Source: Candidatus Woesearchaeota archaeon
Lineage (GTDB): Archaea; Nanobdellota; Nanobdellia; Pacearchaeales; GW2011-AR1
Direction: 5' to 3'
Assembly (NCBI GenBank): GCA_964576755.1
Contig: CAZNUV010000001.1
Coordinates: 106,883-159,530, forward strand
Length of the DNA stretch: 52,648 nt
A program made the position numbers and the translations under genes. The notes beneath the pieces were generated by a model, which was not told where the DNA came from, made no database searches, and saw nothing but the letters and a program-made list of their open reading frames with translations. Within the stretch, counting starts at the first letter, position 1. Each line of letters opens with the position of its first letter. This document shows positions 1,092-17,928 of this stretch, piece by piece.

Positions 1092-3338
1092 ATGGATAAA
1101 CCAAATAAAATCCTAATAGTGGGGGCTGGAGAAGGTGGAAGATTACTTCTTAAAGAGTTAAAAAAAACAGGCCCTACAAAATATACCTTAGTTGGTTTTG
1201 TGGATGATAACAAAATAGGAAAAATAGAGAATATACCTATTTTAGGTAAAATCTACTCAATCCCCCTAATAGTCAAACAATATCAAATAGATGAGATAAT
1301 CATTTCTATACCTTCATTAAAAAAAGAAAAACTTGCCGAAATAATTTCAATATGTAAATCTAGTAATGCAGAGGTAAAAATTCTTCCAAGCACTTATGAG
1401 AGTGTTTATAGTTTAAAGACAGGGAGACCCTGGTATAATCCTATAAGAAAAATAAATCTTGAAGATTTAATAAAGAGAAAACCTTGTGTAATTGATTTTA
1501 AAAAAATTAAAGGACATTTTAAGGGGAAAAGGATACTTATTACTGGCGGAGGGGGTTCAATTGGTAGTGAATTATCTAGACAAATTTCTGAGTTTAACCC
1601 CCGGCTATTAGTGATTGTGGATAACTCAGAATATAATGCATATAAAATTGACATGGAATTAAGAAAGAAATATGGAAAAAAGCTTAATCTGATTACAAAA
1701 ACTTGCGATATAAAAGATTATTTAGCTATTGAAGAAATCTGTAAAAATCAAAAGATAGACATAGTATTTCATGCTGCAGCATATAAACATGTTCCCCTTA
1801 TGGAATTTAATATTAAAGAAGCTGTAAAAAATAACATTTTTGGAACCTATAATGTTGCATTAGCAGCAGAAAAAACAAATGTGAAGGAGTTTATTTTAAT
1901 ATCTACTGATAAAGCTGTAAATCCCACAAGTATTATGGGGGTTACTAAACGAATAACAGAAGAAATAATCCAATTATTTGATAAAACTAAATTTGTTACT
2001 GTAAGGTTTGGGAATGTTCTTGGAAGTAAGGGAAGTGTAATTCCTTTATTTGAGAAACAGATTAAAGAGGGAGGTCCAATAACATTAACTCATCCAAAAA
2101 TGACAAGATATTTTATGACAATTCCAGAAGCAGCACAACTAGTCATCCAGGCAGGGATTGTTGGACAAAATAAAGAGATTTTGATATTAGATATGGGAAA
2201 GCCCTATAAAATAAAAGAGGTTGCAGAAGAACTAATTAGGTTATCTGGATTAATCCCTTATAAAGATATTAAAATTAAATATATTGGATTAAGGCCTGGA
2301 GAAAAATTATGTGAAGAACTATTAACAAATAATGAACTATTAACAAAAACTCAAAATGAGAGGATTTTTGTAAGTAAGGCGGAAGCTATAGATAAAAATA
2401 AACTATCTGAAGATTTAGAAGAACTAAGAAATTTTCTCAAAACAAAGGAAATTGAAACTAAAAGGAAATTGAAAAAAATGCTTCCCTCTTATAAAATTAA
2501 AAAACCTAAAATTTTCATTACAGGGAGTAGGGGTTTTATTGGTTCTAATCTAAAGGGACAATTATTAAATAAAGGATTTGAAATAATTGAAACGCCCTTA
2601 GAAGATAATCTAGAAATAGATCTTTCAAAAAAAGAGAATTTTGCAAATATTCCTCCTGCAGAGATTGTTATTCATTTAGCATCTCATTTACCTCAAAAAG
2701 GTTCTACTAAAGAGGACTATAATAGGGATATAGAAATGACCAGGAATATTATTGAATATTGTGAAAAATATAATTCAAAATTGATTTTTATTTCAAGCTC
2801 TGCAGTATATGGGAATACTAAATTAAATCCAATTAAAGAGAACGAAGTCATAAATCCAATTAATGATTATGGTAAATGTAAGGCAGAATGTGAAAGATTA
2901 ATATTAAGCTCTAAGTTAAAAGGGGTTATCTTAAGATTTTTTAATATTTATGGGCCTGAGCAGCATAAAAAATTCTTGATTTATTCAATTAATGAAGATA
3001 TTAAAACTGGTTGTATAAAGATAATGAAACACATAAAAAGAGATATGCTGTATCTTTCAGACGCTACACAATCAATAATTAACTCTATTTATTTCAAGAA
3101 TAATCATATAAAAATATTTAATATTGGTAGTGGAAAAAGTTTTTTTATAGAAGAAATTGCAGATAAAATTAGTAGTATAAAAAAAGTGAACCCTATTAAA
3201 GAATATTTAGAACCAAATGAAACAACCATTTTAGACATATGTGCAGATATAAGTTTAGCTAAAAAGCATCTCAAATGGAAACCTAAAATTTCTCTAGATA
3301 ATGGACTAAAATTAACTATTGAGAATAATAAGACTTAA
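1092..3338 (+). CDS. PglF/CapD/WbpM-type nucleotide-sugar 4,6-dehydratase fused to a second C-terminal NAD-dependent epimerase/reductase (SDR) domain
   Basis: N-terminal GAGEGG Rossmann; TGGGGSIG, HAAAYKHVP, STDKAVNP, MGVTKR, RFGNVLGS, RPGEKL motifs; then a second TGSRGFIG ... SSSAVYG ... YGKCK SDR. Confidence 0.9.
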   Translation: MDKPNKILIVGAGEGGRLLLKELKKTGPTKYTLVGFVDDNKIGKIENIPILGKIYSIPLIVKQYQIDEIIISIPSLKKEKLAEIISICKSSNAEVKILPSTYESVYSLKTGRPWYNPIRKINLEDLIKRKPCVIDFKKIKGHFKGKRILITGGGGSIGSELSRQISEFNPRLLVIVDNSEYNAYKIDMELRKKYGKKLNLITKTCDIKDYLAIEEICKNQKIDIVFHAAAYKHVPLMEFNIKEAVKNNIFGTYNVALAAEKTNVKEFILISTDKAVNPTSIMGVTKRITEEIIQLFDKTKFVTVRFGNVLGSKGSVIPLFEKQIKEGGPITLTHPKMTRYFMTIPEAAQLVIQAGIVGQNKEILILDMGKPYKIKEVAEELIRLSGLIPYKDIKIKYIGLRPGEKLCEELLTNNELLTKTQNERIFVSKAEAIDKNKLSEDLEELRNFLKTKEIETKRKLKKMLPSYKIKKPKIFITGSRGFIGSNLKGQLLNKGFEIIETPLEDNLEIDLSKKENFANIPPAEIVIHLASHLPQKGSTKEDYNRDIEMTRNIIEYCEKYNSKLIFISSSAVYGNTKLNPIKENEVINPINDYGKCKAECERLILSSKLKGVILRFFNIYGPEQHKKFLIYSINEDIKTGCIKIMKHIKRDMLYLSDATQSIINSIYFKNNHIKIFNIGSGKSFFIEEIADKISSIKKVNPIKEYLEPNETTILDICADISLAKKHLKWKPKISLDNGLKLTIENNKT

Positions 3339-3383: not shown

Positions 3384-5375
3384 ATGAAAAAAGTAAGCGT
3401 TGTAATTGTCTCCCATAATAATAAAGATATTCTTCCTAAATGTTTAAACGCCTTAAAACAACAATCATATAAGAATTTTGAGGTCTATCTGATGGATAAT
3501 GATTCTAGTGATGGTACTCCAGAATTTATTAAGAAAAACTACCCTTTAATAAAATTCTTTAATATCTCTGAAAGTGTTTCTAAAAAAAGGAATATGGCTA
3601 TTAAAAAATCAAACTCTGAGTATATAATAACCTTAGATAGTGATAATGTTTTATCAAAAGAATGGATAAAAACAGCTGTTAAGTACATGGATGAACATAA
3701 AAATGTAGGAATTTGTTGTGGAAAAATGATTGGTCGAGATAAAAAGATAGATTGGGCCGGGGGAATAATGGACCTCTCTGGAGGAATAGCTGATAGGGGC
3801 CATGGTCAAAAAGATTCTGAGGAATATGATTCATTTAAACAGATACCAGTCATGACCACTGCAAATGCAATAATAAGGAGAAAAACCTTAGAAGAAATAG
3901 GAATATTTGATGAGGTTTTTTATTATGATTTTGAAGATGCAGATTTGGGATTAAGAGCAAACTTAGCAAATTGGAGGGTAATTTACAATCCAGAACTTAT
4001 CTCAATACATTCATATCATTCCACAATATCTAAAATGGATAAAAAACAACTAGACAAAATACGTTTTTATTCTATTAGAAATAAAAATTTAATGCTTTTA
4101 AAAAATTTTGAGATGAAAACCCTATTCAGAAATTCTCCTTGGATTGTTTTATCTAACCTTAACAATTTTATAAAAAATCCTCTAATTAGTTTAAAAGCTT
4201 TTTATTGGATTTTCTCAAATATTGGAACAATATATAGTTCTAGAAAAATTACTTTAAAGAAGAAAAAAATTAAAGATAAGGATTTTTTCCAGTTGTATGA
4301 AATTCCTCCTTTAGTAAGATACTCTAATAAAAAAAACAAATTAATATGGTTTTTTAAAAGGATAAATCAAAGAAAAATAAAAAACCTTACTTTTTTCATT
4401 ACCTCAAGGTGCAATTCTCGATGTAAACATTGTTTTTATTGGAAATCTTTAAATCAAAATAAAGACCTTTCATTAGAACAAATAGAAAAAATATTTTCTA
4501 AGTTCTTTGATGTTTATGCAATTTCTTTAGGGGGAGGGGAACCATTTTTAAGAACAGATATAGACAAAATAATTAAGATTGCTAAAAAATATACTGACTG
4601 TAAGATAATTGATATTCCAACAAATGGATTAATAGATATATTTCCAAAGTTAGAACAGATTCTCAAAGAAAATCCCCATATAAGATTTGCTATACATCCC
4701 TCTTTAGATGGGTTTAAAGAAGATCATGATTATATTCGGGGAGTTAATGGAGGTTTTGAAAAAACAATATCCCTAATTAAAAGACTTGCAAAATTAAAAA
4801 AGATTTATCCTAACTTTGTAGAGCTTGCAGTAAATACTGTAGTAATGAATAAAAATTTTAAAAATTTAGAAAGATTTATAGAATTTGTAAAGACTCTTCC
4901 AGTTAGTGGACATGCTTTTGAAATAATAAGGGGGGACCATCAACAAATCTTAGGACCTCCAAATCCTTCTCAATTAAGAAAAATAGCTAAAATAGCCTAT
5001 CAAACACAAAGATATTATAATAAAAAATTTTCCCTAATAAAAAGGATATTTTATAATTTAAGATATAAAGAAGTATGGAGAACTCAACTAAATGCAATGA
5101 AAGGGAGAAAATGGAGATTTAAATGTACTGCGGGATTAACAGATTTTGTAATTGATAGTAATGGAGATGCAAAGATATGTGAACTACAGCCCTTAGTGGG
5201 AAATATGTTAACAGATAATTATCCGGAAGTCTTAAACACAAATCCGGGTAGGAGTATATTTAAAAAAATGAAAAACCATGAATGTGATTGTACTCATAAT
5301 TGCAATATCTCTTCGAGCATGGATTGTTCTTTCAAAAACATATTTTTTGACCGATGGTTTTATAATCTTGTCTAA
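3384..5375 (+). CDS. GT2 glycosyltransferase fused to radical SAM/SPASM-like domain
   Basis: N-half VSVVIV, DNDSSDGT, LDSD, EDADL (GT2); C-half CNSRCKHC, GGEPFLR, SLDG, C-terminal Cys cluster. Confidence 0.85.
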   Translation: MKKVSVVIVSHNNKDILPKCLNALKQQSYKNFEVYLMDNDSSDGTPEFIKKNYPLIKFFNISESVSKKRNMAIKKSNSEYIITLDSDNVLSKEWIKTAVKYMDEHKNVGICCGKMIGRDKKIDWAGGIMDLSGGIADRGHGQKDSEEYDSFKQIPVMTTANAIIRRKTLEEIGIFDEVFYYDFEDADLGLRANLANWRVIYNPELISIHSYHSTISKMDKKQLDKIRFYSIRNKNLMLLKNFEMKTLFRNSPWIVLSNLNNFIKNPLISLKAFYWIFSNIGTIYSSRKITLKKKKIKDKDFFQLYEIPPLVRYSNKKNKLIWFFKRINQRKIKNLTFFITSRCNSRCKHCFYWKSLNQNKDLSLEQIEKIFSKFFDVYAISLGGGEPFLRTDIDKIIKIAKKYTDCKIIDIPTNGLIDIFPKLEQILKENPHIRFAIHPSLDGFKEDHDYIRGVNGGFEKTISLIKRLAKLKKIYPNFVELAVNTVVMNKNFKNLERFIEFVKTLPVSGHAFEIIRGDHQQILGPPNPSQLRKIAKIAYQTQRYYNKKFSLIKRIFYNLRYKEVWRTQLNAMKGRKWRFKCTAGLTDFVIDSNGDAKICELQPLVGNMLTDNYPEVLNTNPGRSIFKKMKNHECDCTHNCNISSSMDCSFKNIFFDRWFYNLV

Positions 5376-5389: not shown

Positions 5390-6160
5390 ATGATATACCT
5401 TACTGGCGATGTACATGCACAAATAGAAAATCATTTTGAACAGAAAATTGCAGGTTCAGAAATAATAGCAGCAAGAAAATTTTTAGAAATTTTAAAAAAG
5501 TATAATATTTCTTCTACACTATTCATTAATGGAGTTAGTTTAGATAAGAATCTCAAACAAGTTAAAAAGCTTTTAGATTATGATGTAGAACTAGGAGGCC
5601 ATACTTACAACAATTTTGATAAGGCCGGTTTAATAAAAAATTACATTTATAGAAAATATTTTGGGTGTATTTATGGTCCAAGTTGGTATCAAAAAAAGGA
5701 TATTAAAAAAACTAAAATGGCTTTTGAAAAGGCTGGATTAAAAATGAACTCTTGGAGAACTCATGCTTTTGGTTCAAATAATAAAACTTTTCTTTTACTC
5801 AAAAGATATGGTGTAAAATATGTTTCTGATTTAACTGGAAATATAAACCCCTTTGAAAAAGAAGGGATTGTCCACGTTCCAATAAATATACCTGTAGACC
5901 AAAACACAATTGCATACTCAATTTTAAGTCCAGAAAATAGAGGTCCTTTTGTTGGATGTGTAAAAGGAAGAATAAAACCAGAAGAATGGTTTGAAATCCT
6001 AAAAGAAAGAGTTATAAAAAATGAAAAGGAAAAAAAGGATAGTGTAATATTAATACACCCAATAACCATGGCTGTTTTAGATAATTTTGAATTATTTGAA
6101 AAAATAGCAAAATTTTTATCCAAATATAAATCTGGGAAAATTTCAGAAATAAAAATCTAA
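5390..6160 (+). CDS. Polysaccharide deacetylase family protein
   Basis: LTGDVH, TLFING, ELGGHTY, WRTH, LIHP motifs of the NodB-like fold. Confidence 0.7.
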   Translation: MIYLTGDVHAQIENHFEQKIAGSEIIAARKFLEILKKYNISSTLFINGVSLDKNLKQVKKLLDYDVELGGHTYNNFDKAGLIKNYIYRKYFGCIYGPSWYQKKDIKKTKMAFEKAGLKMNSWRTHAFGSNNKTFLLLKRYGVKYVSDLTGNINPFEKEGIVHVPINIPVDQNTIAYSILSPENRGPFVGCVKGRIKPEEWFEILKERVIKNEKEKKDSVILIHPITMAVLDNFELFEKIAKFLSKYKSGKISEIKI

Positions 6161-6162
6161 AG

Positions 6163-7695
6163 CTAAGATTTTACTATAAATTTTTTATTATTGTTAAAAT
6201 CAAAAGTTTCTTTTATCATTAAAATATCTTGTTTTCCAACACCCCTAATTAGGGCCATTATAGCAAAATAAATTATTACTCCTAAAAGAATCTCAAAAAT
6301 TCCTATGATTAGATTCATATCTGTTATAAACACTTTATTTATTAAAAACAAAACAACAAACATTACTAGTGAAGAAAATAATGGTTTAATAAAGTAAGAG
6401 AATTTAAATCTGATTCCAAAGTCTTTTTTTGCCCGAATCATTAAAGCAAAAAGATAGAAATAAACACTAATAACAGTTGCAATTGCAGCCCCAGATATGG
6501 CCCAGGTAAAAGATATTTTAACTAAAACTGAGATTAATACCAAGTTTAGGATAATATTCATTAAAGAAGCAATTAAAATCATTTTAGTAACATACTTTGG
6601 TTTTTCTTTTGAAGAAAATAAAGAAATTATAACTCCTCCCAAAATAACATAAAATATGTGTCCTGTTAAAAACATAAAAGGGATTGTTGCAAGAAGATAA
6701 TCATATCCAAAAAATAACCTAATAAAATACCTCCCAAATATAAGGGCTCCAAAAGTTAAGGGAATAGATAACAAACAAATGTATCTAAAGACTTTATCAA
6801 AAGAATCTTTCATTTGAGATTCCTTCAATTGAGTGAATACTGGTAAAATAACCCAAGCTACTGAAAAAATAACCCCTAAACTAGTAACTAAAGACAATGC
6901 AGAAGAATAGTAACCAATATAATCAGGAGTTACAAAAATACCTAACATAAGAGTATCAATATATCCAAATAAGACCGAAAAAATTCCTGCTATACTCAAG
7001 TATTTTAAAAAATTTAAAACTCTTTTTTTATCAATTCCGATAGAAGATTTTTTGAGCAAAAATGGGGCTAATTTTCTTAATAAAAATAATAAAATTAAAA
7101 GAGCAATAAAATTTACTAAAATCAATCCAAGTATGATCCATATTGTTCTAAATTTTTCAATGATTATAAAAAAAACTAAACTTGCAACTGAAATTTTTAG
7201 AACTTGCAAGGTTATTTCTTTAAAAAGAAGATATTTTATCTGATTTATAGCATAAAAAAGTCTTTCAAAAAATGTTTCATAAGATAAAATAATCAGATAA
7301 ACAGAAAGGGCTAACAATAATGGAAATATTTCTGGTTTTTTAAATATAAAAAAGGCTAATGGATAAGATAAAATTATTAAGAGTAATGAAAAGATTATTG
7401 TTAAAATTGTTTTTATCTTAAGTAGATATCTTAAATAACCCACTGCCTTGGATTTTTGTTTTTTGCCCAAGGCATCAGAAACATATCTTAGTGTTGTCTG
7501 ATTAATTCCTAATTCTGTAAATGTAATAAAAACCAAGGTAATAACCATAGCCAAATTATAAATTCCAAAACCTTCTGGTTTCAAGAACCTTGCTAAAAGA
7601 ATTACAAATATTAATGCTCCAAACTTACTTATAAAAGTGTATATTGCTTGCCAAATAGACTCTCTAGCAATTTTAACTGAAACCTTTTCTTCCAT
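6163..7695 (-). CDS. Wzx/MOP-family oligosaccharide flippase
   Basis: About 14 hydrophobic segments; LARFLKPEGFGIY, IDTLMLG, IGYYS, GAAIAT motifs; start moved to ATG 7695. Confidence 0.9.
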   Translation of the reverse strand: MEEKVSVKIARESIWQAIYTFISKFGALIFVILLARFLKPEGFGIYNLAMVITLVFITFTELGINQTTLRYVSDALGKKQKSKAVGYLRYLLKIKTILTIIFSLLLIILSYPLAFFIFKKPEIFPLLLALSVYLIILSYETFFERLFYAINQIKYLLFKEITLQVLKISVASLVFFIIIEKFRTIWIILGLILVNFIALLILLFLLRKLAPFLLKKSSIGIDKKRVLNFLKYLSIAGIFSVLFGYIDTLMLGIFVTPDYIGYYSSALSLVTSLGVIFSVAWVILPVFTQLKESQMKDSFDKVFRYICLLSIPLTFGALIFGRYFIRLFFGYDYLLATIPFMFLTGHIFYVILGGVIISLFSSKEKPKYVTKMILIASLMNIILNLVLISVLVKISFTWAISGAAIATVISVYFYLFALMIRAKKDFGIRFKFSYFIKPLFSSLVMFVVLFLINKVFITDMNLIIGIFEILLGVIIYFAIMALIRGVGKQDILMIKETFDFNNNKKFIVKS

Positions 7696-7768
7696 ATAAT
7701 CCAAGAAAGTTCCTATATTTAAATAACTATTTAATAAAATAAATTAAAAGATTCTCTTAGAAATTATT

Positions 7769-8914
7769 TCAAGAAATTCTATCCAAAATATCCCTTAAAG
7801 ATTCCAGAGTTAATTTCCGTGGATTATTTTTTACTCTTTCTAGTTTAAACCCCTCTTTAATTATAATATTTTTTCTTCTTTCATTAATCCCTAATTTTGA
7901 TAATCTTGTTTCTAATCCAATCTTATGCATCAAAGAAGTTATATTCCTTGCTGCTTCTTTTTCATTATGCCCTCCTAATAAAAATGTTAATTCTCTAGTT
8001 GTTTTTTTGACATAATCTGGTCCGCGAAAATCGGCACAATCCTTACCAGAAATAAACGAATTAAAGATTAACATTTGTCCTAAGGTTAAACCTACTGCAT
8101 GGCCATGGAGCACTCTAAAATAAGAAGTCATTGGATAAGCAATTGAATGACATGCAGTCGTCTTGGTGATATTAATTGCCTTACCTGCTAAATTTGCGCC
8201 GGCCATAACATAATATTTTGCTTGTTTTTTTAATTCTGGATCAGTACTGTTTACCGAAATTTCTAGATTATTTATTAAACATTTTATAGCTTGTTTAGAA
8301 AATTCCTTAGATTGTTTATTAGAATTTATGCTCCAATAAGATTCTATTGATTGACCTAAAGCATCTATTCCTGTTGCAGCAGCTATTTTTTTAGGTAAAG
8401 ACATTGTAAATTGGGGATCTACAATTGTATATTCTGGAAGAGTAATCTCTAAGTTTCCAGAAGATTGTTTTTTCTTTCCTTTGTAATAAACTATAAAATA
8501 AGTTGCTTCACTTCCGCTTCCGGCTGTGGTTGGTATTGCAATTAACGGAATTTTTTGTTTTGTTTCTTCATAATAGTCTAATTTAATCTTTTTTGAGACA
8601 TCAATACAAGAACCTCCCCCAACTGCAATAATTAAATCATAATTATTATTGTTTTGATTAAAAATTTTAAAACCCCTCCTTATTTCCTCTTCCTTAGGAT
8701 TAGAAGAAAAATTACAAAATCTTGTAAATCTAATATTATTCTTTTGAAATATTTCTTTTAAAATATCTTCAGATCCAGATAATTTATAAGAATTATGTCC
8801 AGTTACTAAAAAAATTTCTTTATAACTTTCTTTATGTAAAATTGTATCTAGATTTTTGATAGATCCAAATCCAAAATATTCTTCTTGTCCTTGAAATTTT
8901 TTCATTTTAGTCAT
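7769..8914 (-). CDS. Phosphonoacetaldehyde reductase (group III Fe-alcohol dehydrogenase, PhpC/FomC-like)
   Basis: GGGS, PTTAGSGSE, DALGQSIES, HSIAYP, HGH motifs; ATGA-coupled directly behind phosphonopyruvate decarboxylase. Confidence 0.85.
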   Translation of the reverse strand: MTKMKKFQGQEEYFGFGSIKNLDTILHKESYKEIFLVTGHNSYKLSGSEDILKEIFQKNNIRFTRFCNFSSNPKEEEIRRGFKIFNQNNNNYDLIIAVGGGSCIDVSKKIKLDYYEETKQKIPLIAIPTTAGSGSEATYFIVYYKGKKKQSSGNLEITLPEYTIVDPQFTMSLPKKIAAATGIDALGQSIESYWSINSNKQSKEFSKQAIKCLINNLEISVNSTDPELKKQAKYYVMAGANLAGKAINITKTTACHSIAYPMTSYFRVLHGHAVGLTLGQMLIFNSFISGKDCADFRGPDYVKKTTRELTFLLGGHNEKEAARNITSLMHKIGLETRLSKLGINERRKNIIIKEGFKLERVKNNPRKLTLESLRDILDRIS

Positions 8915-10062
8915 TTCCCTAAAAAATCCATTAGGGCTTGTTTATTCTCTATAGGAGTTATTGTTGGCCTTCCAAGATCTTTTCTAGCACCCTTATTGAC
9001 TTTAATTACTAAAATTTTTGGGCCCTCTTGTTTTAAATTTTTAATTTCTTTAAAAAAATCTACTAAATCTTTTTTTGATTCTATCTGTTTTGCATTCATA
9101 TAACCACAAGCAGAAGCTATTTTTTTAAAATCAACACTATCCGAAGAAGTTGGCTGCCCCCCTGTTGAATCATAAGCATTATTATCGAAAATTATATGGG
9201 TTAAATTTTTGGGGTTATTATGCCCGACTGTTGCAAGGGCTCCTAGTTGCATTAATGTAGCTCCGTCACCATCAAAGATAAAAACTTTTTTATTTGGTTT
9301 TTGTAAGGCTATTTCTAATGCAATAGAAGATGAACATCCCATACTTCCCACTGTTAAAAAATCTTTTTCATGGCCTTGTTTTAATGATTCTCTATATTCA
9401 AACAGTTCTCTAGAAGTTTTACCAGTAGTAGAAATAATAATTTCATCTCCACCTAAGTTGTTAATAATAAACTTAATTGCATCTTCTCTAAACATCTCAT
9501 AATTAGTTTTTATTTTTTTAAGTGCATCATATTCTTCAAAAAGTCCGTTTGTCATAATAATTGCAGTAGCATAATTTGTTTGTTTTGCTGTTTGTTTTGC
9601 CCAAAAAATTTTTTCTCTTACAATATTAATATCATCTTTCTCCTCAAGAACCTTATAAGGAATCTCTAAAACATCAAGTAAGGGCAACATTATTTTTCCC
9701 ATCATTTTATGTTGTGGCTCATCCTTTTTTTCATTTTTTGGATTTCCCCTCCATCCTATCATTAATACTGTAGGGATCGAGTAAACTTCTTTAGCAGTTA
9801 AAGAAGTGAGTGGATTAACTGTTTTTCCAAGACCAGAATTTTGCATATAAATAACACCAATATTTCCAGTTGCAAGATGATATCCTGCAGCAAGAGAAAC
9901 AGCTTCACATTCGTTTACAGCAATTCTATTTGTTAAACCATTTTCATGATTATCTGCAAGAAATTTCATCCAATCTTTAAAAGTAGAATCAGGCACCCCA
10001 GTAAAATAATCTAAATTTTGTTCTTTAAATACTTTATAGAGTTCTTCACATTTTATAGTCAT
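8911..10062 (-). CDS. aepY: Phosphonopyruvate decarboxylase
   Basis: FTGVPDS, NECEA, YMQNSGLG, DEPQH, STTGKTSREL, VGSMG, DGDG...NN TPP motif, STGGQ, LGRP. Confidence 0.95.
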   Translation of the reverse strand: MTIKCEELYKVFKEQNLDYFTGVPDSTFKDWMKFLADNHENGLTNRIAVNECEAVSLAAGYHLATGNIGVIYMQNSGLGKTVNPLTSLTAKEVYSIPTVLMIGWRGNPKNEKKDEPQHKMMGKIMLPLLDVLEIPYKVLEEKDDINIVREKIFWAKQTAKQTNYATAIIMTNGLFEEYDALKKIKTNYEMFREDAIKFIINNLGGDEIIISTTGKTSRELFEYRESLKQGHEKDFLTVGSMGCSSSIALEIALQKPNKKVFIFDGDGATLMQLGALATVGHNNPKNLTHIIFDNNAYDSTGGQPTSSDSVDFKKIASACGYMNAKQIESKKDLVDFFKEIKNLKQEGPKILVIKVNKGARKDLGRPTITPIENKQALMDFLGK

Positions 10063-10069
10063 TTTAAGA

Positions 10070-11377
10070 TTATTCTCTTTCGGGAATTAATTTTAATATT
10101 TCCTTTATGGGCATGCAGAATTCCTCAGATTCATATGCTCTTTCATTTTTTAATATAGATTCTGCGGTCTTTTTCATAGCTGGATAAGCACTTCTTAATA
10201 AATGATTGGCATAGATAACCATATTTGCTCCAATTTCTTTTAATTCTTTTTCAGCCATGTGGCTATAAGTGGTAGGAACAACTACTAAGGGAACCTTATT
10301 TTCAAATTTTGAATATTCTCTACAAAATTCAAGAAGTTCTATTGGTTGTTTTTCCTTACTATGGATCATTATTGCATCTGCACCAGCCTTAATATATGAT
10401 TGAGATCTAGTTAAAGCATCATAAACTCCTTTTCCTAAAATTAAACTTTCTATTCTTGCAATAATCATAAAATCATTATTTAATTGCGCTTTTTTTCCTT
10501 GAGATATTTTATGAGAAAATGCCTCTATACTGTCTTGTGTTTGTTCTACTTCTGTCCCAAATAAAGAGTTTCTTTTTAATCCAATTTTGTCTTCTATAAT
10601 CACTGCCGAGATACCTAACCTTTCTAAAGTTCTTACCATAAAAACGAAATGTTCTGTTTGACCGCCATTATCTCCATCAAAAATTATTGGTTTAGTTGTT
10701 GATTCTAATATCTGATCTATTGTAGATAAACGGGAAGTTAAATCAACAACCCCTATATCTGGTTTTCCTTTTGCAATAGAATCAGTTAAACTACTAATCC
10801 ACATTCCATCAAATTCCTTTTTAAAACTATCTCCTTCAACAAAAGCATTTTCAACAATTAATGCGGTTATTCCATTATGGGCCTCTAAAACTCTCACAAT
10901 TTCTTTTGAGTCTAATAATCTTCGCAAGGTTCTGATTCTTATTTCTGGACTGGTCCCTATCTCTTTTAATGACTGATTTAATTGAGTTGAAGAAATTCCT
11001 ATTGTATAAGGGATTTCAACCAACTGCCCCCCCCACTCTTTTAAGGTTTCTATAACTCTTTCCCTAATTTGTTTTTGTACCCCTGTTTTCCAATCATCTC
11101 CATGAACCACATAATCGGGCCTTATTTTTCTTAAATTAGGGATATAATCTAAAGTTTCTTGAGGGATAACCTCTTCAACACCCTTAATATTCTTTACAAT
11201 TATTTTTCTTTGTTCAAAATTCATATGGGGTAATCTTTTATAACTTGCAATTGCTTTATCCGTTAATAAACCAATAACTACTCTGCCTAATTTTCTTGCT
11301 CCGTCAATTATGTTTAAATGTCCCGGGTGTAATAAATCGGCACTCATCCCAACATAAACTATTTTTTCTTGTAACAT
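10070..11377 (-). CDS. aepX: Phosphoenolpyruvate mutase with N-terminal cytidylyltransferase domain
   Basis: N-terminal DLLHPGH (HxGH) and HGDDW; PepM catalytic motif [10 protein letters not shown] (EDKx5NS); ARIES, YANHLLR. Confidence 0.95.
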
Positions 11378-11379
11378 TT

Positions 11380-12786
11380 TTAGTACTTTCCTTTTTCAAA
11401 TCTTTTTTCCCTTGTATCTTTTTTATTATAATCATAATTAAATTTAGCAACAAGCTTCTGAACTTCTTCTGCCTTAAATTCAGGAGTATTAATGTTTCCT
11501 ATTTTATATAGCTGATCATTTGTTGTTATTCCTTTACGCAAATAACCCTCTTCCCTACATATTTTCAATAATTCAGAGCCAACTAGGGGGGTTGCAAGAA
11601 AAAATGAGGCCGTATCAAAACCACAATCCTTAACAAAATTATAGGTTTCATACATCTGTTCAATAGTTTCTCCGGGAATTCCACAGATGTTGAATGCATG
11701 AACTTTTATTCCTAATTGTTTTGCCTTTAGCACAAGCGGTTTAACTCGATTTAAATCTAATGGTTTTTTTATTAAATTACTTAAAACGTACTGATTGCCA
11801 CTTTCAATGGCAAATGTCAGTTGATAACAACCCGATTTTTTCATTTCCTCAAGAAGTTCTTCATCTAATGCCCACACAGCTATTCCTTGAGGAACGCACC
11901 ATTTTATATTCATCTCTTGCAATCCTTTTACAATTTTTATTGCTCTTTCTTTATTTAATGTTAAATTATCATCTGTAAACTGAATTTCGTCAATATTATA
12001 TTTCTCTTTTAACTCTTTTATCTCCCTAAGCACATTTTCGGAGGTTCTACCCCTATAACGATTTCCCCAAAAATTTGTTGTTGTGCAGAAAACACATCTT
12101 GCCGGACAGCCCCTTGATGTAATTATTTGTATTACTCTTTTTCCTTCAGGATAGGGGTTTTGTGGAATATTGATCTCAAAATATTTTTCCATGTTTAGAA
12201 GATGCCTTGCTGGAACTGGGAGAGTATTTACATCCCCCACATATTCAAGAGCATCATTAATGAAATTTTGACTATTTATTCTGTATGCAAGACCACCAAT
12301 TTTTGAAATATCCTCGTCTACATTAAGAGCATTAAGAAGCTTTAATGTAGGTATTTCTCCTTCTCCCATTATTATGTAATCCACATAATCTAATTGAATC
12401 ACATTTTCAATATCATATGTTGGGTGGGAACCCCCTATTAATGTAATTATGTTCTTGTTTAATTCCTTTGTAAGTTTTAAAATAGCTTTTGCATTTTCAT
12501 ATTGCGTTGAAAAAATACATGAGACTCCAACAACATCCGGATTAAATTCTTTAATATTTTTTTTTATTTCTTCATCACTTAAACCATAAGTTACAAATTC
12601 TCCGTGTTCTTTTAGGTTATGATAACCTTCTATTGCAACATCGATTATTTTTACTTCATAACCTTCTTTTTCCAAAAAAGCTGCTATAGAAGCAAGACCC
12701 ATTGGAGTAACTGCTCTTCTGATATCGTTTTTATACAAAGTATATCTCGGAGTCATTAATAAAATTTTATTTATTTTTCTTTTCAT
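11380..12786 (-). CDS. Cobalamin-binding radical SAM protein (class B methyltransferase-like)
   Basis: [20 protein letters not shown]12-binding domain; [11 protein letters not shown] cluster motif; IESG, GIPGET. Confidence 0.9.
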
Positions 12787-13328
12787 GTTTTTTCTTCCTT
12801 TTTTTTATTCTTTAAAATTTTTTCCAAAATTTTTTCGTTGGATAGTCTTTCATAAAAGTCATAATTTATAATTTCAACTCCCAACCTTTTAATCTGGTCC
12901 TGGCCTGGTGCTTTTTTCCAATTTGAACCATAAACAGCAATTAATTTTGCATTTGGAAACTGCTGTTTAATTTTTTTTAAGTTTTCAATCGGCTCAAGGA
13001 TATCCTGAGGCATAACCATATCTACACACCTTAAATTAGAAATTATTGCTTTCCTTTCATTAAAATTAGCAATAGGTTCTCCTTTATAAGATTTTACAGC
13101 TTCATCAGTGATAACTCCACAAATATGAAAATCTCCTAGTTCATTTGCTTTTTCTAAAATTTGTAAATGCCCATAATGAAATAGATCTCCAATAATTGGG
13201 GTGTAAACAACTATTCTTACTTTCTCTTGTTGAATATTCACAATATCTCCATTTTTTATTCCAGAACCTTTAGGAATAGTAACACATAACTGCCCATTAG
13301 ATTTATTCTTCCAAACTATCTTTTTCAT
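12783..13328 (-). CDS. AbrB/MazE-like N-terminal domain fused to HxGH cytidylyltransferase
   Basis: N-terminus ...NGQLCVTIPKGSGIKNGDIVNI resembles a swapped-hairpin domain; then GDLFHYGH and F.ER...I..LRCVD.V (TagD-like). Confidence 0.75.
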   Translation of the reverse strand: MKKIVWKNKSNGQLCVTIPKGSGIKNGDIVNIQQEKVRIVVYTPIIGDLFHYGHLQILEKANELGDFHICGVITDEAVKSYKGEPIANFNERKAIISNLRCVDMVMPQDILEPIENLKKIKQQFPNAKLIAVYGSNWKKAPGQDQIKRLGVEIINYDFYERLSNEKILEKILKNKKKEEKT

Positions 13329-13331
13329 TTA

Positions 13332-13357
13332 TTACTAGTGTTACTAGTGTTTATAAA
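13332..13357 (-). promoter_or_regulatory. TATA box plus tandem TTACTAGTG operator-like repeats for the phosphonate operon
   Basis: TTTATAAA at 13350-13357, 22-29 nt upstream of ATG 13328; TTACTAGTG twice (13332-13340, 13341-13349), each with an ACTAGT palindrome. Confidence 0.55.
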
Positions 13358-13429
13358 TATTTCTAAAATAGAGGATTGTTCCTCAGTAATAACGCATAAT
13401 TTTAAATATCTCGGGGTCTGAATAAAAAT

Positions 13430-14170
13430 ATGGTTTCAATAAAAGAATTAAGAAAAATCTGTGTCCCAAAATATAAAACAAAGCCTCCTTGGAGGATATT
13501 ATTTGCAAGGAAAGTTTCTATCTATTTTACATGGTTATTTATCAAAACCCCCTTAGTTCCAAATCAAATAACCTTTATGATGTTGGTATTGGGCATTATT
13601 GTAGGAATTCTTTTTATGTTTGGAAACTATTTTTATTCTTTGATTGCAATCCTACTATTTCAATTAGCTTTTTTCATAGATTGCTCTGATGGGGAAGTTG
13701 CAAGATGGAAAAAAATGGAGTCTTCTAGAGGTTTTTATCTTGATTTAATGACTCATATCATTGTTAATCCATTGATTATAATTGGAATTTCTATAGGGGC
13801 TTTTATAAATAATCCTACAATTATTCCAAATTATGTTTTTTTAATAGTTGGAGGTATTGCGACATATAGTTTAATGATAAATAATTTTGTAAAATTAAAA
13901 AAGTATGAAGTTTATATTAAATTAAACGAATTTGAAAAATTAAAGAGTCTTGATAAAAGAATTGACGCAGAAGAAGACGATAACAGCAATAAAATTAAAA
14001 ATGAAATAACCGGGTTTTTTAAAATAAGTATATTTGATGCGCTTTTTGTTTTTGGAGTCTTGAACTTATTACCCTATCTAGTTTTATTATACGGAATCCT
14101 TTTCCCATTACAAGCAATAAAAAGGTTTTATTCTGAATTTAAATCTGAAAAGAGTGTGATTCCTTATTAA
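13430..14170 (+). CDS. CDP-alcohol phosphotransferase family membrane protein
   Basis: PNQIT and DCSDGEVAR...G.YLD signature; multiple TM segments. Confidence 0.9.
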   Translation: MVSIKELRKICVPKYKTKPPWRILFARKVSIYFTWLFIKTPLVPNQITFMMLVLGIIVGILFMFGNYFYSLIAILLFQLAFFIDCSDGEVARWKKMESSRGFYLDLMTHIIVNPLIIIGISIGAFINNPTIIPNYVFLIVGGIATYSLMINNFVKLKKYEVYIKLNEFEKLKSLDKRIDAEEDDNSNKIKNEITGFFKISIFDALFVFGVLNLLPYLVLLYGILFPLQAIKRFYSEFKSEKSVIPY

Positions 14171-14622
14171 CTAAACTCTTTTTTCTTTTTATTTCTTACT
14201 AAAATGTATATTTCAGAGAATTTTGAATACCATAAATCATGTTGATAAAAAATATCTATGTAATCTAAAACCATGTGAAGAAAAACCCCTAAAAACATCA
14301 GGAAAAATAACACATTAAAATAAGATAAAATTATCAAGAGTAACATAAACTCAATCCCGTGAAACATAAAAAATGTTATTTTATGTTTCTGTTTTTCTTT
14401 GTAAGGAAGCATTCTCCACCTACGGCCTCGTTGGATGTTCCATAGATAAGCTTTTTTTATACTAAAATCCCTGTTTTTAAAAACATAATTCAAATAATGA
14501 TCTACATCAAATAAAAATGAAGACAAAAAAATAATTGAACAGGCTAAAAAACTAAATTCAAAGAAAAAATAAAAAATACAAGAAAAAATAAATCCATACA
14601 AAATATGCCATTTAGGATACAT
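14167..14622 (-). CDS. Membrane-bound metal-dependent hydrolase-like protein (YdjM/YbcI-like)
   Basis: N-terminal His, DVDH, FH, H..LD pattern in a hydrophobic protein. Confidence 0.5.
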   Translation of the reverse strand: MYPKWHILYGFIFSCIFYFFFEFSFLACSIIFLSSFLFDVDHYLNYVFKNRDFSIKKAYLWNIQRGRRWRMLPYKEKQKHKITFFMFHGIEFMLLLIILSYFNVLFFLMFLGVFLHMVLDYIDIFYQHDLWYSKFSEIYILVRNKKKKEFS

Positions 14623-14626
14623 TTGA

Positions 14627-16144
14627 TTAATTAGAAAGTTTTTTAATTATGTCTGCAAATGCGGGTCTTGTTATTAAAACTCCAGTAGTTATTCCAATTA
14701 AAGTTGTAACTGCAAATCCTTTTAAAAGTCCTGCTCCAGCCCAATAAAGAGGAAGAAGAGCTACTACAGTTGTGAAATATGCAGTCATTACAATAAATAA
14801 TGCTTTCTTAATTCTCTCTTTAATACTCTCAGAAGTATTTCTAGATTCATCTAAAATAACAATTAAATGATCTACTCCTGTTCCTATTGTGGCAATTATT
14901 CCTGCAATACTTGGTAAGTCTAAATTCCAATTAATTAATGAAGCAAATCCTAAAATTATCACCACTTCAGATATAGACGCTACAAGTAATGCTAAAGAAA
15001 TTTTCCAACTTCTATACCTAATTAAAATAACTAAAGAGACTGCAATTAATGCGAATAATCCTGCTAAGAAAATTTTTCTTATGAAACCTTGGCCTAATAC
15101 TGGAGATATCTGATCTGTTTTTACAATTTTTAATTTAAATGGTAAACTTCCTGTAATTAAAACTGTCTGAAGTTTTTTCATATCTTGTTGAGCATTATCA
15201 TATGCTTCTTTTTGAGTTGTACCTGAACCAGAACCTTGAATAGAATGTTGAGTTACATCGCTTCCTTGAAGATCTTTACTTATTAAAAGAGAATCAGTCA
15301 TTATATCATCTAGATAAAAATCAATTGTTTTTTCTAGATAGGCTGGATTTGTTGCATTTATTGGAATATTTTTTGTAACCTGAGCATAATTCTCTGCAGC
15401 ATCTACACTTAAAGAAATCGCAAATCTGAATAAACAAACCCATTGTTCTTCTGAACTTTGCCTACAATCATAAATTCCAGAATCTTGCCCGCTTCTAGCA
15501 ACATAAGTTATATCTTCATCTCCTCCTCGAAAGACAGTGTCATTTCCAATTTTTGCTTCAAATTTTCCTTGTTTAGCAATTAAATCTTGTAAATCTGAAG
15601 GGGTTGAACCTGCAATTTCAACAAGCATATAATTATTTCCAGACAAATCAGAAACTCTTTTAAGTTTTACATCACTTAAACCATAGATATTTAATCTTTC
15701 CTGGGATACTGCAATTAAATCTTCAACTTCAGAATTTGTAAGTTTTTCTTCAGAACCAACCAATGCACGTGCACCTCCACGAATATCTAATCCTGTCTGT
15801 ATCCTTGTAAAAGGTATTTCTTCTAATTGAATCTGGTCTACAATCTCTGCTGAAAATAAATTAATTATCTCAACTTCTTTAGTTTTTATATCTAATTTAT
15901 GTTCTTGTAAATCTGAAAATATAGACATAGAATTTGAATAATCTTCAATGGTTTCTATTGTCTGACCATTAATCTCTTGTATAATCATTCCAGCTCTTAG
16001 ACCTAAATCAAAAACTGATGAATTTTGTTCAACTGATTTTACAATAAGCCCTTTTTCTAAAAACTGGGGAGGAATAGAAAAAATAGAAATTAAAGAGAAA
16101 ATTAAAAATGCAATTAACATCCAAATTCTCCAAGTTAATTTCAT
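14627..16144 (-). CDS. secD: Protein translocase subunit SecD
   Basis: GLDIRGG, GSLP, ISPVLG, IAGIIATIGTGVD, LKGFAVTT; start moved to ATG 16144 (MKLTWR) behind a GGAGGT SD. Confidence 0.92.
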   Translation of the reverse strand: MKLTWRIWMLIAFLIFSLISIFSIPPQFLEKGLIVKSVEQNSSVFDLGLRAGMIIQEINGQTIETIEDYSNSMSIFSDLQEHKLDIKTKEVEIINLFSAEIVDQIQLEEIPFTRIQTGLDIRGGARALVGSEEKLTNSEVEDLIAVSQERLNIYGLSDVKLKRVSDLSGNNYMLVEIAGSTPSDLQDLIAKQGKFEAKIGNDTVFRGGDEDITYVARSGQDSGIYDCRQSSEEQWVCLFRFAISLSVDAAENYAQVTKNIPINATNPAYLEKTIDFYLDDIMTDSLLISKDLQGSDVTQHSIQGSGSGTTQKEAYDNAQQDMKKLQTVLITGSLPFKLKIVKTDQISPVLGQGFIRKIFLAGLFALIAVSLVILIRYRSWKISLALLVASISEVVIILGFASLINWNLDLPSIAGIIATIGTGVDHLIVILDESRNTSESIKERIKKALFIVMTAYFTTVVALLPLYWAGAGLLKGFAVTTLIGITTGVLITRPAFADIIKKLSN

Positions 16145-16206
16145 TCTACAAACCTCCTGCGGGTTTCTAGGAGTTCCGGCAACCAAAGAGGTGTTACAAA
16201 TTTCAT
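16141..16206 (-). other. GC-rich structured insert between secF and secD carrying a 21-codon mini-ORF (MKFVTPLWLPELLETRRRFVE)
   Basis: ATGA overlap with the secF stop and with the secD start; AATGAAATT direct repeat at both ends. Confidence 0.5.
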
Positions 16207-17210
16207 TGTTTTACCTCGACATACCATTTAATCAAAGAAGCATTAGTAATCCAGGTATTGAATAGGTCAAACAATAATCCAATTAATAATATTGTGAATA
16301 TCTGAGTTAAAATGGGAGATACACTATAAACAGTTATTAATGCTGCAACTAGTGCAAAGATAGATGTTAGAGTCATTGTTGTTCCTGTTTTAAATGCTCC
16401 AAAAAGTGCTTGTCTAACAGATTCTTTTCTCCTTAACATCCTTGTTGTTAACAATATGTCTGTATCTACAGAATAACCTATCAACATTAAGAATGCCACA
16501 ATTCCTGCTGTAGAAATTTTTAATCCAATTAAATCTACTAAAGCCAAGGTCATTAGAATATCTGCAAAAGCAGAAACAATAACTGCAAAGCTAGGAACAG
16601 AATATTTAATATAAAGATAGAAAATTAAAAGTAATCCTATGAATGGAATTATTAAGTATATCCCTTTTAATAATACAAATAAAATTAAAACAGAGATAGT
16701 CAAAATAGAAACTAAAAGTTTAATCTTAAAAGACTTACTAAAAATTAAAAATACAACTAAGGCCATTAATAAAAATGCAGTAATAAGAGCTATCTGGAGT
16801 TGTACATAAAAGTCTTGACTTAAACTACTTCCAGTAAACTCAATACTTGAATTTTCTTCTGTTAATTTAATTCCAAGATAATCTTCTAAAATTGGAACAA
16901 TTGCATCTGGTTCTTCAGGAACAGTAATTATTACTCTTGTCTGTTGCCCAGTATTATCTGAAATAGCTCTTACTACTAAATCTTCAAATGTTTTTGACAA
17001 CTCTAATTTTAAATCTTCTACAGAAACTGAAGAATCTATAGTAACTGTTGTTCCCCCTGTTAAAGAAACATCTTTATGAATTATATCTTGATTTTGAGAG
17101 TAAAAATATCCTAAATAAACTAGAGATAAAATTAAAAGCAATGCTGGGAAAATCAGTAATTTTTTATAATTCTTATCATACCAATTTCCTAATTTTTCTG
17201 TTTTTGTCAT
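16203..17210 (-). CDS. secF: Protein translocase subunit SecF
   Basis: DVSLTGGT, LMLIGYSVDTDILLTTR, D.FNTW..NA; adjacent to secD. Confidence 0.92.
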   Translation of the reverse strand: MTKTEKLGNWYDKNYKKLLIFPALLLILSLVYLGYFYSQNQDIIHKDVSLTGGTTVTIDSSVSVEDLKLELSKTFEDLVVRAISDNTGQQTRVIITVPEEPDAIVPILEDYLGIKLTEENSSIEFTGSSLSQDFYVQLQIALITAFLLMALVVFLIFSKSFKIKLLVSILTISVLILFVLLKGIYLIIPFIGLLLIFYLYIKYSVPSFAVIVSAFADILMTLALVDLIGLKISTAGIVAFLMLIGYSVDTDILLTTRMLRRKESVRQALFGAFKTGTTMTLTSIFALVAALITVYSVSPILTQIFTILLIGLLFDLFNTWITNASLIKWYVEVKQ

Positions 17211-17225
17211 TTTATTTTAGTAATA

Positions 17226-17296
17226 TGCGCGGGCCGGGACTTGAACCCGGGTCAACTGGTTGGAAGCCAGTTATTCTGCCACTAAACTACCCACGC
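17226..17296 (-). tRNA. tRNA-Gly(TCC)
   Basis: Cloverleaf; anticodon arm ACTGG-CTTCCAA-CCAGT, GTTCAAGTC T-loop; CCA not encoded. Confidence 0.95.
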
Positions 17297-17338
17297 ATAT
17301 TTATTAGATATGCTAGGGGGTTTTTAAAGTTTAAGACA

Positions 17339-17414
17339 TGCCCGAGGTAGGACTTGAACCTACGACTTCCACCTTAGGAGGGTGGCACTCTAATCCAAAC
17401 TGAGTTACTCGGGC
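17339..17414 (-). tRNA. tRNA-Arg(CCT)
   Basis: Anticodon arm CCACC-CTCCTAA-GGTGG; GTTCAAGTC T-loop. Confidence 0.95.
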
Positions 17415-17461
17415 ACATGTCTGTAACAAAATTTAAAAACCATATATAGGTTAAAAAGATT

Positions 17462-17737
17462 ATGATAGTAAGAATATTAGGAATATTTGATATAATTGCA
17501 GCATCAGTAATGTTCTCAATTGCATTTGGAATAAATATTTATCATTGGTTGATTATTTTCTTAGCTGTTGTTTTAATAATCAAAGGATTATTTGTACTGA
17601 CAAAGAGTATTGCTAGTGGATTTGACTTGCTTGGTGCTGTTCTTCTTTTAATTTCTCTTGTAGCTGTAGTCCCAAAATTATTACTTTTAATTTCTGGATT
17701 TTTAATAATTCAAAAAGGATTTTTAAGTCTTATTTAA
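17462..17737 (+). CDS. Small multi-pass membrane protein
   Basis: Hydrophobic 91-aa ORF with repeated KG motifs. Confidence 0.7.
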   Translation: MIVRILGIFDIIAASVMFSIAFGINIYHWLIIFLAVVLIIKGLFVLTKSIASGFDLLGAVLLLISLVAVVPKLLLLISGFLIIQKGFLSLI

Positions 17738-17760
17738 CCACCTATCTTATTAAATAAAGA

Positions 17761-17844: not shown

Positions 17845-17928
17845 ACATAATTGAACATAATTCAAGTGTTTAAAATTCTTTGGATTGTAAAAAGAGAAGC
17901 TTTATAAAGTCAGAATTTGTATGAATTT

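Follow-up and report, generated by a model that had tools for sequence, protein, structure and literature searches.

The stretch of DNA analysed here, hereafter the window, comprises 52,648 nucleotides (nt) of Candidatus Woesearchaeota archaeon (GenBank assembly GCA_964576755.1, contig CAZNUV010000001.1, positions 106,883 to 159,530) and forms the final 52.6 kb of a 159.5-kb contig, in a genome of 0.71 Mb that is distributed over 21 contigs, 86.7% complete and 0.22% contaminated. At positions 6163–14170 of the window, about 113–121 kb into the contig, lies a phosphonate biosynthesis locus, composed of six co-directional genes on the minus strand and one divergent gene, which are given below in the direction of transcription of the minus-strand run, with the divergent gene last (aa, amino acids; CDP, cytidine diphosphate):

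12783–13328, minus strand: stand-alone cytidylyltransferase, here named CyT2 (181 aa; PF01467)
11380–12786, minus strand: class B, cobalamin-binding radical S-adenosylmethionine (SAM) enzyme, here B12-rSAM, the candidate counterpart of Fom3 (468 aa; PF02310 and PF04055)
10070–11377, minus strand: fusion of a cytidylyltransferase (CyTase) and a phosphoenolpyruvate (PEP) mutase, predicted bifunctional enzyme of the Fom1 type (435 aa; TIGR02320, PF01467)
8911–10062, minus strand: phosphonopyruvate decarboxylase Ppd, the counterpart of Fom2 (383 aa; TIGR03297)
7769–8914, minus strand: group III iron-dependent alcohol dehydrogenase, Fe-ADH (381 aa; PF00465 and PF25137)
6163–7704, minus strand: MOP-family, Wzx-like flippase (513 aa; PF01943, PF13440, PF03023)
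13430–14170, plus strand: CDP-alcohol phosphotransferase, divergent from the run (246 aa; PF01066)

The minus-strand run from CyT2 to Fe-ADH is translationally coupled, with overlaps of 4 nt at the CyT2/B12-rSAM and Ppd/Fe-ADH junctions and gaps of 2 nt between B12-rSAM and the CyTase-PEP mutase fusion and of 7 nt between the fusion and Ppd. The flippase follows on the same strand after a gap of 64 nt, as the downstream end of the run, and a spacer of 101 nt separates CyT2 from the divergent CDP-alcohol phosphotransferase. Coordinates and Pfam assignments thus agree with the first-pass annotation, which had been made from the letters of the window and had described a tightly coupled run followed by a flippase, with a divergent CDP-alcohol phosphotransferase and glycosyltransferases nearby.

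On score and motif, the mutase domain of the fusion is a true PEP mutase (PepM, also called Ppm), in accordance with that annotation. It reaches 402.8 bits against TIGR02320 (NCBIfam; cut-off 319.55), far over its scores against the rival families of phosphonopyruvate hydrolase (148.8 bits, cut-off 374.4) and methylisocitrate lyase PrpB (97.7 bits), and its translation contains the motif EDKx5NS, the criterion that, in the portion of Rice et al. (2019; PMC6697681) dealing with this question, separates Ppm from other PF13714 proteins. PF01467 covers residues 12–133 of the fusion and PF13714 residues 151–409. The protein aligns end to end with Streptomyces wedmorensis Fom1 (62.8% identity over 433 aa), and the structure of the CyTase domain of the latter (5x3d_A) matches its residues 2–140 in a search of the Protein Data Bank (PDB; E 2.8e-63). 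As judged by this kinship, the fusion is of the Fom1 type, and cytidylylation of 2-hydroxyethylphosphonate (HEP) is predicted for it by analogy of sequence. Fom1-type proteins constitute a very large family that is found in more than one domain of life: each of the 8000 candidates scored was a match, and among the best 120, which are 69–100% identical, are proteins named from Nanoarchaeota, Pacearchaeota, Falkowbacteria, Anaerolineae and Salinivirgaceae. Ppd scores 452.1 bits against TIGR03297 (cut-off 312.5), contains the N- and C-terminal thiamine pyrophosphate domains (PF02776 and PF02775), shares 41.2% identity with S. wedmorensis Fom2 and has putative phosphonopyruvate decarboxylase subunits (9iz3) as its best PDB matches. 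For Fe-ADH we propose the role of phosphonoacetaldehyde reductase, as FomC or PhpC, the sole argument being its conserved place beside Ppd and PepM.

The fosfomycin cluster of S. wedmorensis NRRL 3426 served as comparator; its contig was located via a degenerate pattern derived from the 5x3d alignment, and 20 kb were compared. The order of the Pfam families on one strand is B12-rSAM, helix-turn-helix-cupin, DUF402, amino-acid kinase, an open reading frame (ORF) without family, CyTase-PepM, Ppd and Fe-ADH, which we take to be, in that order, Fom3, Fom4, FomD, FomA, FomB, Fom1, Fom2 and FomC. This gene set agrees with the fosfomycin pathway as set out in the relevant portion of PMC8158854, where Fom3 is the characterised methylase of HEP-CMP, the conjugate of HEP with cytidine monophosphate (CMP). 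The window shares with the pathway of S. wedmorensis and S. fradiae the same four early enzyme types (Fom1, Fom2, FomC and Fom3) and differs from it in having a second cytidylyltransferase that stands alone, as well as a CDP-alcohol phosphotransferase and a flippase, and in its setting, an archaeal glycan locus as opposed to an actinomycete antibiotic cluster.

The two also differ in the late genes. No FomD (DUF402/PF04167) was detected in the 86.7%-complete genome of the window, in a search whose control was positive in seven of 14 named genomes, and nothing in that genome matched S. wedmorensis Fom4 (HppE). A transaminase for 2-aminoethylphosphonate (AEP) was likewise not found there, the single class-V aminotransferase (PF00266, Aminotran_5) being a NifS/IscS cysteine desulfurase (TIGR03402, 491 bits). 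These searches by family and homologue extend to the genome the absence of FomD, Fom4/HppE and AEP transaminase that the first-pass annotation had reported for the window. Among the scanned ORFs of the window there was no match to an amino-acid kinase of the FomA type, nor to MpnS, HEPD and MpnS not having been searched genome-wide. As four enzyme types out of the six that make fosfomycin in Streptomyces are present, the cluster might be thought to make a free small-molecule phosphonate, such as fosfomycin, another antibiotic or an antimetabolite; we consider this very unlikely, given that FomD, HppE and a FomA-type kinase were not found within these scopes and that a glycan locus, with flippase and membrane transferase, surrounds the genes.

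The distribution of the module was surveyed in 401 sampled genomes of the phylum, and PepM neighbourhoods were compared in the 24 genomes with PepM (about 6%; 21 above cut-off); genomes G244, G322 and G360 enter solely the B12-rSAM and PepM tallies, no locus from them having been analysed. Since PepM is confined to these 24 genomes and is absent from all 27 further genomes sampled in the family to which the window belongs, its distribution is patchy and it probably moves laterally. A Fom1-type fusion (63–72% identical, 430–457 aa) is found in 18 of the 24. Ppd and Fe-ADH are both alongside it in 16 of these 18, a CDP-alcohol phosphotransferase homologue lies within about 10 kb in eight (the window and seven further genomes), CyT2 is present at 55% identity or more in four (window, G153, G222 and G058), and a B12-rSAM of the Fom3 clade is adjacent in four (window, G153, G222 and G285). 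Genome G153 repeats the run of five genes in unchanged order, divergent CDP-alcohol phosphotransferase included, and G222 has the five with B12-rSAM moved to first place; contigs of up to 536 kb carry the module in other small genomes of this phylum. The gene arrangement is not due to chance, as it recurs in G153 and G222. The part leading to HEP-CMP (Fom1-, Fom2- and ADH-like) is ordinary and widespread, and it is the Fom3-type step that is less common.

In the 23 other genomes, 139 other ORFs are located up to 7 kb from PepM, and the commonest Pfam families among them are glycosyltransferases of family GT1 (17), SAM-dependent methyltransferases (13), GT2 (six), DegT aminotransferases, sulfatases and nucleotidyl transferases (five each); four ORFs match Polysacc_synt. 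The surface-glycan context that the first-pass annotation had assigned to the window, where glycosyltransferases, the flippase and a deacetylase are present, is therefore also seen around PepM elsewhere in the phylum. Six genomes (G109, G287, G121, G261, G230 and G157; loci L085–L090) hold longer PepMs, in frames of 547–588 aa that are 36–48% identical to that of the window and have a different N-terminal part; most of them have Ppd, Fe-ADH is nearby in just two, and they probably represent another phosphonate branch. One further PepM match (G001:C3:73264-74103, locus L056) contains one in-frame TAA, for which a pseudogene, a sequencing error or recoding are possible.

In B12-rSAM, the cobalamin-binding domain PF02310 lies at residues 25–146 and the radical SAM domain PF04055 at residues 221–385, with the CxxxCxxC motif reading CPARCVFC, and the enzyme is 42.4% identical to S. 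wedmorensis Fom3 over 488 aa (E 3.9e-122). The best NCBIfam family for both proteins is NF038361, the Sden_1168 family (353 bits for the window enzyme, 300 bits for Fom3, cut-off 575; PhpK scores far lower), which is annotated as P-methyltransferase, whereas Fom3 is a C-methyltransferase. We rejected the P-methyltransferase label, since the score is below the cut-off, by which neither protein is a member, and Fom3 gives the same profile. A literature search on Sden_1168 returned no match, and a PDB search with the window enzyme returned nothing closer than AprD4 (E 2e-16).

Its kinship to Fom3 was judged by phylogeny. In a tree of 52 rows with denser sampling (LG+G4; distant paralogues and loci with short flanks carry no context label), all six PepM-linked B12-rSAMs (window, G153, G222, G285, metagenome locus L091 and Fom3) fall in one clade of 19 rows, and all 13 rows known to be PepM-less nearby fall outside it. 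The context labels require one change on this tree, a number as low as in none of 500 shuffles and found in 72% of 200 bootstrap trees; the clade has a value of 98 in the Shimodaira–Hasegawa-like approximate likelihood ratio test (SH-aLRT) but 67 in the ultrafast bootstrap (UFBoot). The gene is also adjacent to the Fom1-type gene in G153, G222 and L091, and near-adjacent in G285 and S. wedmorensis. Taken together with a smaller tree given below, these results are in our view moderate support for orthology of the window enzyme to Fom3, and they favour the first-pass annotation, in which the enzyme set had been called early-fosfomycin-like.

Close relatives of B12-rSAM are also encoded in genomes without PepM (94–98% complete), namely G082, G356 and G197 at 45–46% identity and G196 at 37–40%, where they adjoin cytidylyl- or nucleotidyltransferases, CDP-alcohol phosphotransferases or both. 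In G082 (96% complete, no PepM), the 45% identical Fom3-like enzyme is directly followed, near a CDP-alcohol phosphotransferase, by a 479-aa fusion of a PF01467 cytidylyltransferase and a class-V aminotransferase (PF00266, the AEP transaminase family; locus L034, 11079–12518, plus strand), possible substrates of which are a scavenged aminophosphonate or a phospho-amine head group. In the PepM-less G196, the Fom3-like enzyme stands beside a 648-aa fusion of a nucleotidyltransferase (PF00483/PF12804) and a metalloenzyme/phosphoglycerate-mutase-like part (locus L037, 10686–12632, minus strand). Because of these neighbours, the wider family appears to work generally on small head groups that are cytidylylated, which keeps alive the reading that the window enzyme has another substrate. 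On such a reading, CyT2, B12-rSAM and the CDP-alcohol phosphotransferase would be a separate system whose cytidylylated alcohol or amine is scavenged or no phosphonate, with PepM, Ppd and ADH merely alongside. The PF01467 and PF01066 neighbours in the four PepM-less genomes, and the aminotransferase fusion of G082 among them, fit such a system. Nevertheless, we hold it to be distinctly improbable, considering that B12-rSAM sits between CyT2, which it overlaps, and the PepM fusion, from which it is 2 nt away, and that PepM-linked enzymes are split from PepM-less ones in the 52-row tree, with Fom3, the HEP-CMP methylase characterised in the portion of PMC8158854 cited above, inside the PepM-linked clade.

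B12-rSAM matches at E ≤ 1e-40 were obtained in 141 of the 401 phylum genomes, often several per genome, with four in the genome of the window. Just upstream on the same contig (G000:C1:82000-101999, locus L043), four more B12-rSAM paralogues (25–34% identical) and a GT1 glycosyltransferase lie within 20 kb. In the glycan loci of these small genomes, radical chemistry dependent on cobalamin looks to be a general trait. One match of this kind (G270:C15:14642-15889, locus L020) has one in-frame TAG, with the possibilities of a pseudogene, a sequencing error or recoding.

CyT2 (PF01467, 46.8 bits) is by sequence a paralogue of the Fom1 CyTase domain, with 38% identity to the CyTase domain of the adjacent fusion protein over 115 aa and 5x3d as its second-best PDB match (E 4.7e-17). 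It keeps the HYGH form of HxGH and has no clear second motif resembling RTxGISTT, the two being, as we assume, the cytidylyltransferase motifs to look for here. Orthologues are 61–63% identical in the G153 and G222 modules and about 55% in G058. Since CyT2 matches just the Fom1 domain itself in the S. wedmorensis cluster, no counterpart of it exists there. The G153 and G222 orthologues share with CyT2 an N-terminal extension of about 35 aa (13224–13328, minus strand), the alignment spanning 173–177 of 181 aa, and the sole Pfam hint for it, below threshold, was to MazE_antitoxin/AbrB-like proteins (E 0.092).

The CDP-alcohol phosphotransferase scores 47.3 bits against PF01066 (gathering cut-off 22), and in an atlas comparison it obtains a feature score of 0.96 and a structural TM of 0.78 to CDP-OH_P_transf clusters. 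Of what we take to be the four-aspartate signature of these enzymes, DxxDGxxAR...GxxxDxxxD, the residues Asp84, Asp87, Gly88, Ala91, Arg92, Gly101 and Asp105 are present (DxxDGxxAR-x8-G-xxx-D), and the fourth position is His109. In the window enzyme and eight homologues (loci L032, L072, L074, L081, L082 and L090) this position is occupied by H, F, A, L, G or T; by alignment they form a divergent subfamily, and their chemistry may differ. The gene at 13430–14170 encodes the sole PF01066 protein of the genome, and no CDP-archaeol synthase (CarS) was found in the 86.7% that is assembled. The two neighbouring cytidylyltransferases are the sole source of CDP-alcohol-like compounds visible in the genome. 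As there is one PF01066 protein and neither CarS nor a hydrolase of the conjugate was seen, we propose that the CMP-phosphonate would be the donor of the transferase, and not a transient handle as in Streptomyces. The flippase scores 83.3 bits against PF01943 and also matches PF13440 and PF03023.

What we observed are the enzyme families and how they relate to Fom1, Fom2 and Fom3, a gene order that is conserved, and late fosfomycin genes that were searched for and not found; from these we infer the chemical steps, the site of methylation, the role of the CMP conjugate as donor, its acceptor and any role of CyT2. We estimate at roughly 55% the probability that the operon makes a CMP-activated C3 phosphonate, 2-hydroxypropylphosphonate-CMP (HPP-CMP), as a head group for a glycan or lipid of the envelope. 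PEP would be converted to phosphonopyruvate by the PepM domain, phosphonopyruvate to phosphonoacetaldehyde by Ppd, and phosphonoacetaldehyde to HEP by Fe-ADH. The cytidylyltransferase domain of the Fom1-type enzyme would then convert HEP to HEP-CMP, and cobalamin-dependent methylation at C2 by B12-rSAM would yield HPP-CMP. Because neither a FomD-type hydrolase nor an HppE epoxidase was found in the genome, HPP-CMP would be the end of the soluble pathway and a CDP-alcohol-like donor, from which the membrane CDP-alcohol phosphotransferase would move the phosphonyl group to a membrane-bound acceptor, with release of CMP. The acceptor would most likely be a lipid-linked glycan made by the neighbouring glycosyltransferases, a lipid being less likely, and the MOP flippase would then export the decorated product. 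A CMP-activated hydroxyalkylphosphonate, possibly methylated and destined for the surface rather than for an antibiotic, was also what the first-pass annotation had suggested, and the families, the Fom3 clade and the glycan context support it in silico.

Several points weigh against this reading. Fe-ADH scores 151 bits against TIGR03405 (Phn_Fe-ADH), below the cut-off of 423.7, and is just 28.5% identical to FomC; genes scored as missing could lie in the unassembled part of the genome; and the second cytidylyltransferase, CyT2, is not needed by fosfomycin biosynthesis. The nearest curated family, under whose cut-off both B12-rSAM and Fom3 fall, is one of P-methyltransferases. Among 80 loci sampled from metagenomes, 11, five of them long-flanked, have no PepM in their flanks although their radical SAM enzymes are 38–43% identical to that of the window, which is the level of Fom3; since identity alone does not fix the substrate, we discarded it as a test of Fom3 function. 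In a tree of 26 rows of known context (LG+C20; three long-branch paralogues dropped), Fom3 falls in a clade of nine rows (UFBoot 97, SH-aLRT 95) together with four PepM-linked archaeal enzymes and four from PepM-less genomes, which is unresolved inside, the PepM-linked rows forming one group in 32% of bootstrap trees, and the UFBoot of 67 for the PepM-linked clade of the larger tree is moderate support. Finally, the fourth signature aspartate is absent from all nine aligned transferases from PepM neighbourhoods, so the window enzyme may not catalyse the canonical reaction.

The poor resolution inside the Fom3-holding clade would suit a head group that is plain HEP, as in HEP-phosphonoglycans, with B12-rSAM methylating a sugar or another position, adding several methyl groups or acting after transfer. 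It is joined by the commonness of the HEP-CMP triad without a Fom3-clade enzyme (14 of the 18 Fom1-type genomes of the phylum) and by the abundance of B12-rSAM paralogues in glycan loci, as counted above. Plain HEP is nonetheless rather unlikely in our view, because B12-rSAM has a cytidylyltransferase gene as translationally coupled neighbour on either side, groups with Fom3 and all other PepM-linked members, and keeps its adjacency to the Fom1-type gene in G153, G222, G285, L091 and Streptomyces.

The surroundings of the locus are archaeal. Downstream, at 14627–18041, are SecD and SecF of the archaeal type, three tRNA genes and a 5S rRNA gene, and at 24202–28781 the archaeal gene order RpoF-DUF655-S13-S4-S11-RpoD-L18e-L13-S9 is found. 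GC content is 0.25–0.31 throughout the window, with no step at the phosphonate locus, and the named sources among the closest homologues of B12-rSAM (60–73% identity) are Nanoarchaeota, Nanoarchaeia or archaeon. A DPANN-type archaeal origin, as claimed by the first-pass annotation, fits this gene order, the small genome and nearest homologues named Nanoarchaeota or Pacearchaeota. A chimeric join at the locus is unlikely, and that an assembly or binning artefact misjoined a bacterial phosphonate cluster to archaeal DNA is, to our judgement, extremely improbable. Such an artefact would account for a Fom1-type protein that is 69–76% identical to proteins of many phyla, bacteria included, and for the lack of PepM in the 27 family relatives; it is opposed by the internal position of the locus in the 159.5-kb contig with archaeal genes downstream, by the uniform GC content and low contamination, by the archaeal names of the closest B12-rSAM homologues and by the presence of the same module on long contigs of other small genomes of the phylum. 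Sequence words of window positions 9000–18500 are present in five lake-water metagenome runs with shares of 0.99, 0.99, 0.94, 0.69 and 0.58, a measure of presence only and not of contiguity or expression; the two runs at 0.99 are possible sources.

The remaining features around the surface HPP-CMP module proposed here comprise four adjacent glycan-building genes of the window, assigned by Pfam:

1–996, minus strand: GT1 glycosyltransferase
1092–3338, plus strand: fusion of Polysacc_synt_2 and an epimerase
3384–5375, plus strand: fusion of a GT2 glycosyltransferase and a radical SAM domain
5390–6160, plus strand: polysaccharide deacetylase

The protein of 1092–3338 (748 aa) has a PglD_N-like start, a dehydratase of the CapD/Polysacc_synt_2 type at residues 148–428 and a second, NAD-dependent epimerase/dehydratase domain at residues 474–679. 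That of 3384–5375 (663 aa) has GT2 at residues 5–173 and radical SAM at residues 339–501, and other genomes of this phylum have relatives (41–42% identity) in the vicinity of B12-rSAM or PepM genes. No family was found by Pfam for the ORF at 14167–14622, which by position is grouped with SecDF and not with the phosphonate module. The tRNA genes, all on the minus strand within 17225–18041, are tRNA-Gly(tcc), tRNA-Arg(cct) and tRNA-Leu(caa), and the 5S rRNA gene (17929–18041, plus strand) is a lone one, with no 16S or 23S nearby.

Phosphonates at the cell surface, those known being AEP, HEP and methylphosphonate derivatives, are resistant to phosphatases; a protective role for the cell and a contribution to the aquatic cycles of organic phosphorus and methane are assumed for them. 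In the methylphosphonate cluster of Nitrosopumilus maritimus and in actinomycete HEP-phosphonoglycan systems, a PepM-Ppd-ADH route leads to HEP, with genes for nucleotidyl- and glycosyltransferases around it; the phosphonate is presumably linked to polysaccharide as an ester and, in Nitrosopumilus, HEP is converted to methylphosphonate via MpnS. To our knowledge, Fom3-type methylation is not part of either system.

In bacteria, nucleotide-activated phosphonates are described as donors for surface decoration, with Ppm fused to nucleotidyltransferases, and PF01467-Ppm fusions account for 23.6% of the bacterial Ppm proteins predicted in that survey (1485, non-redundant), according to the portions of Rice et al. 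(2019; PMC6697681) that concern them. The window resembles this phosphonyl tailoring in its nucleotide-activated donor and in the PF01467-Ppm fusion class. The characterised enzymes in those portions are, however, PF12804 LicC-like PntC proteins that activate AEP, whereas in the window no AEP transaminase was found, the alcohol branch to HEP is present and radical methylation is added. The 'CDP-OH' neighbourhoods of Burkholderiales, as they appear in the corresponding part of Li and Horsman (2022; PMC8942020), are alike in having Ppm and Ppd, two cytidylyltransferases, one of them fused to Ppm, and phospholipid-type transferase genes, membrane-linked phosphonates being predicted there. They differ in being bacterial, in their AEP transaminase and oxygenase (AEP/hydroxy-AEP), in their PntC-type cytidylyltransferases and in that no B12-radical SAM enzyme features in that part of the account. 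Our full-text search found no paper on phosphonate biosynthesis in DPANN archaea, and archaeal neighbourhoods, or ones with PF01467 fusions, might be listed in the supplementary tables of these two surveys (PMC8942020, PMC6697681). No Fom3-type step in a surface-decoration setting was found in print, as judged largely by titles. Each of the enzyme types, the Fom1–Fom3 chemistry, nucleotide-activated surface phosphonates and archaeal phosphonate synthesis are already known.

We tentatively suggest, with somewhat less than even confidence, that HPP is a natural cell-surface head group, which a portable Fom1-Fom2-ADH-Fom3 module would deliver as HPP-CMP to glycans or lipids of the envelope in DPANN archaea and in uncultivated bacteria such as Omnitrophota, the extension to Omnitrophota-like bacteria being judged from the nearest Fom3 relatives, and that the Streptomyces pathway may be an older surface module to which FomD and Fom4 were added. 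As a testable corollary, the antibiotic pathway looks like a head-group module plus a hydrolase and an epoxidase. The prediction of the head group itself is directly testable by heterologous expression.

If this were true, HPP would be a new surface phosphonate, and the pool of organic phosphorus in the environment would contain a methylated phosphonate so far unrecognised. The step of fosfomycin biosynthesis that is chemically the hardest would exist outside antibiotic producers, giving a concrete scenario for the assembly of an antibiotic pathway, and a symbiont with a genome of 0.7 Mb would depend on borrowed cobalamin for its surface chemistry. For a single modification of its envelope, such a genome would give up about 8 kb and take on a need for cobalamin and, with PepM in about 6% of the phylum genomes, mostly as part of the HEP-CMP module, the envelope would be a place of investment for these symbionts.

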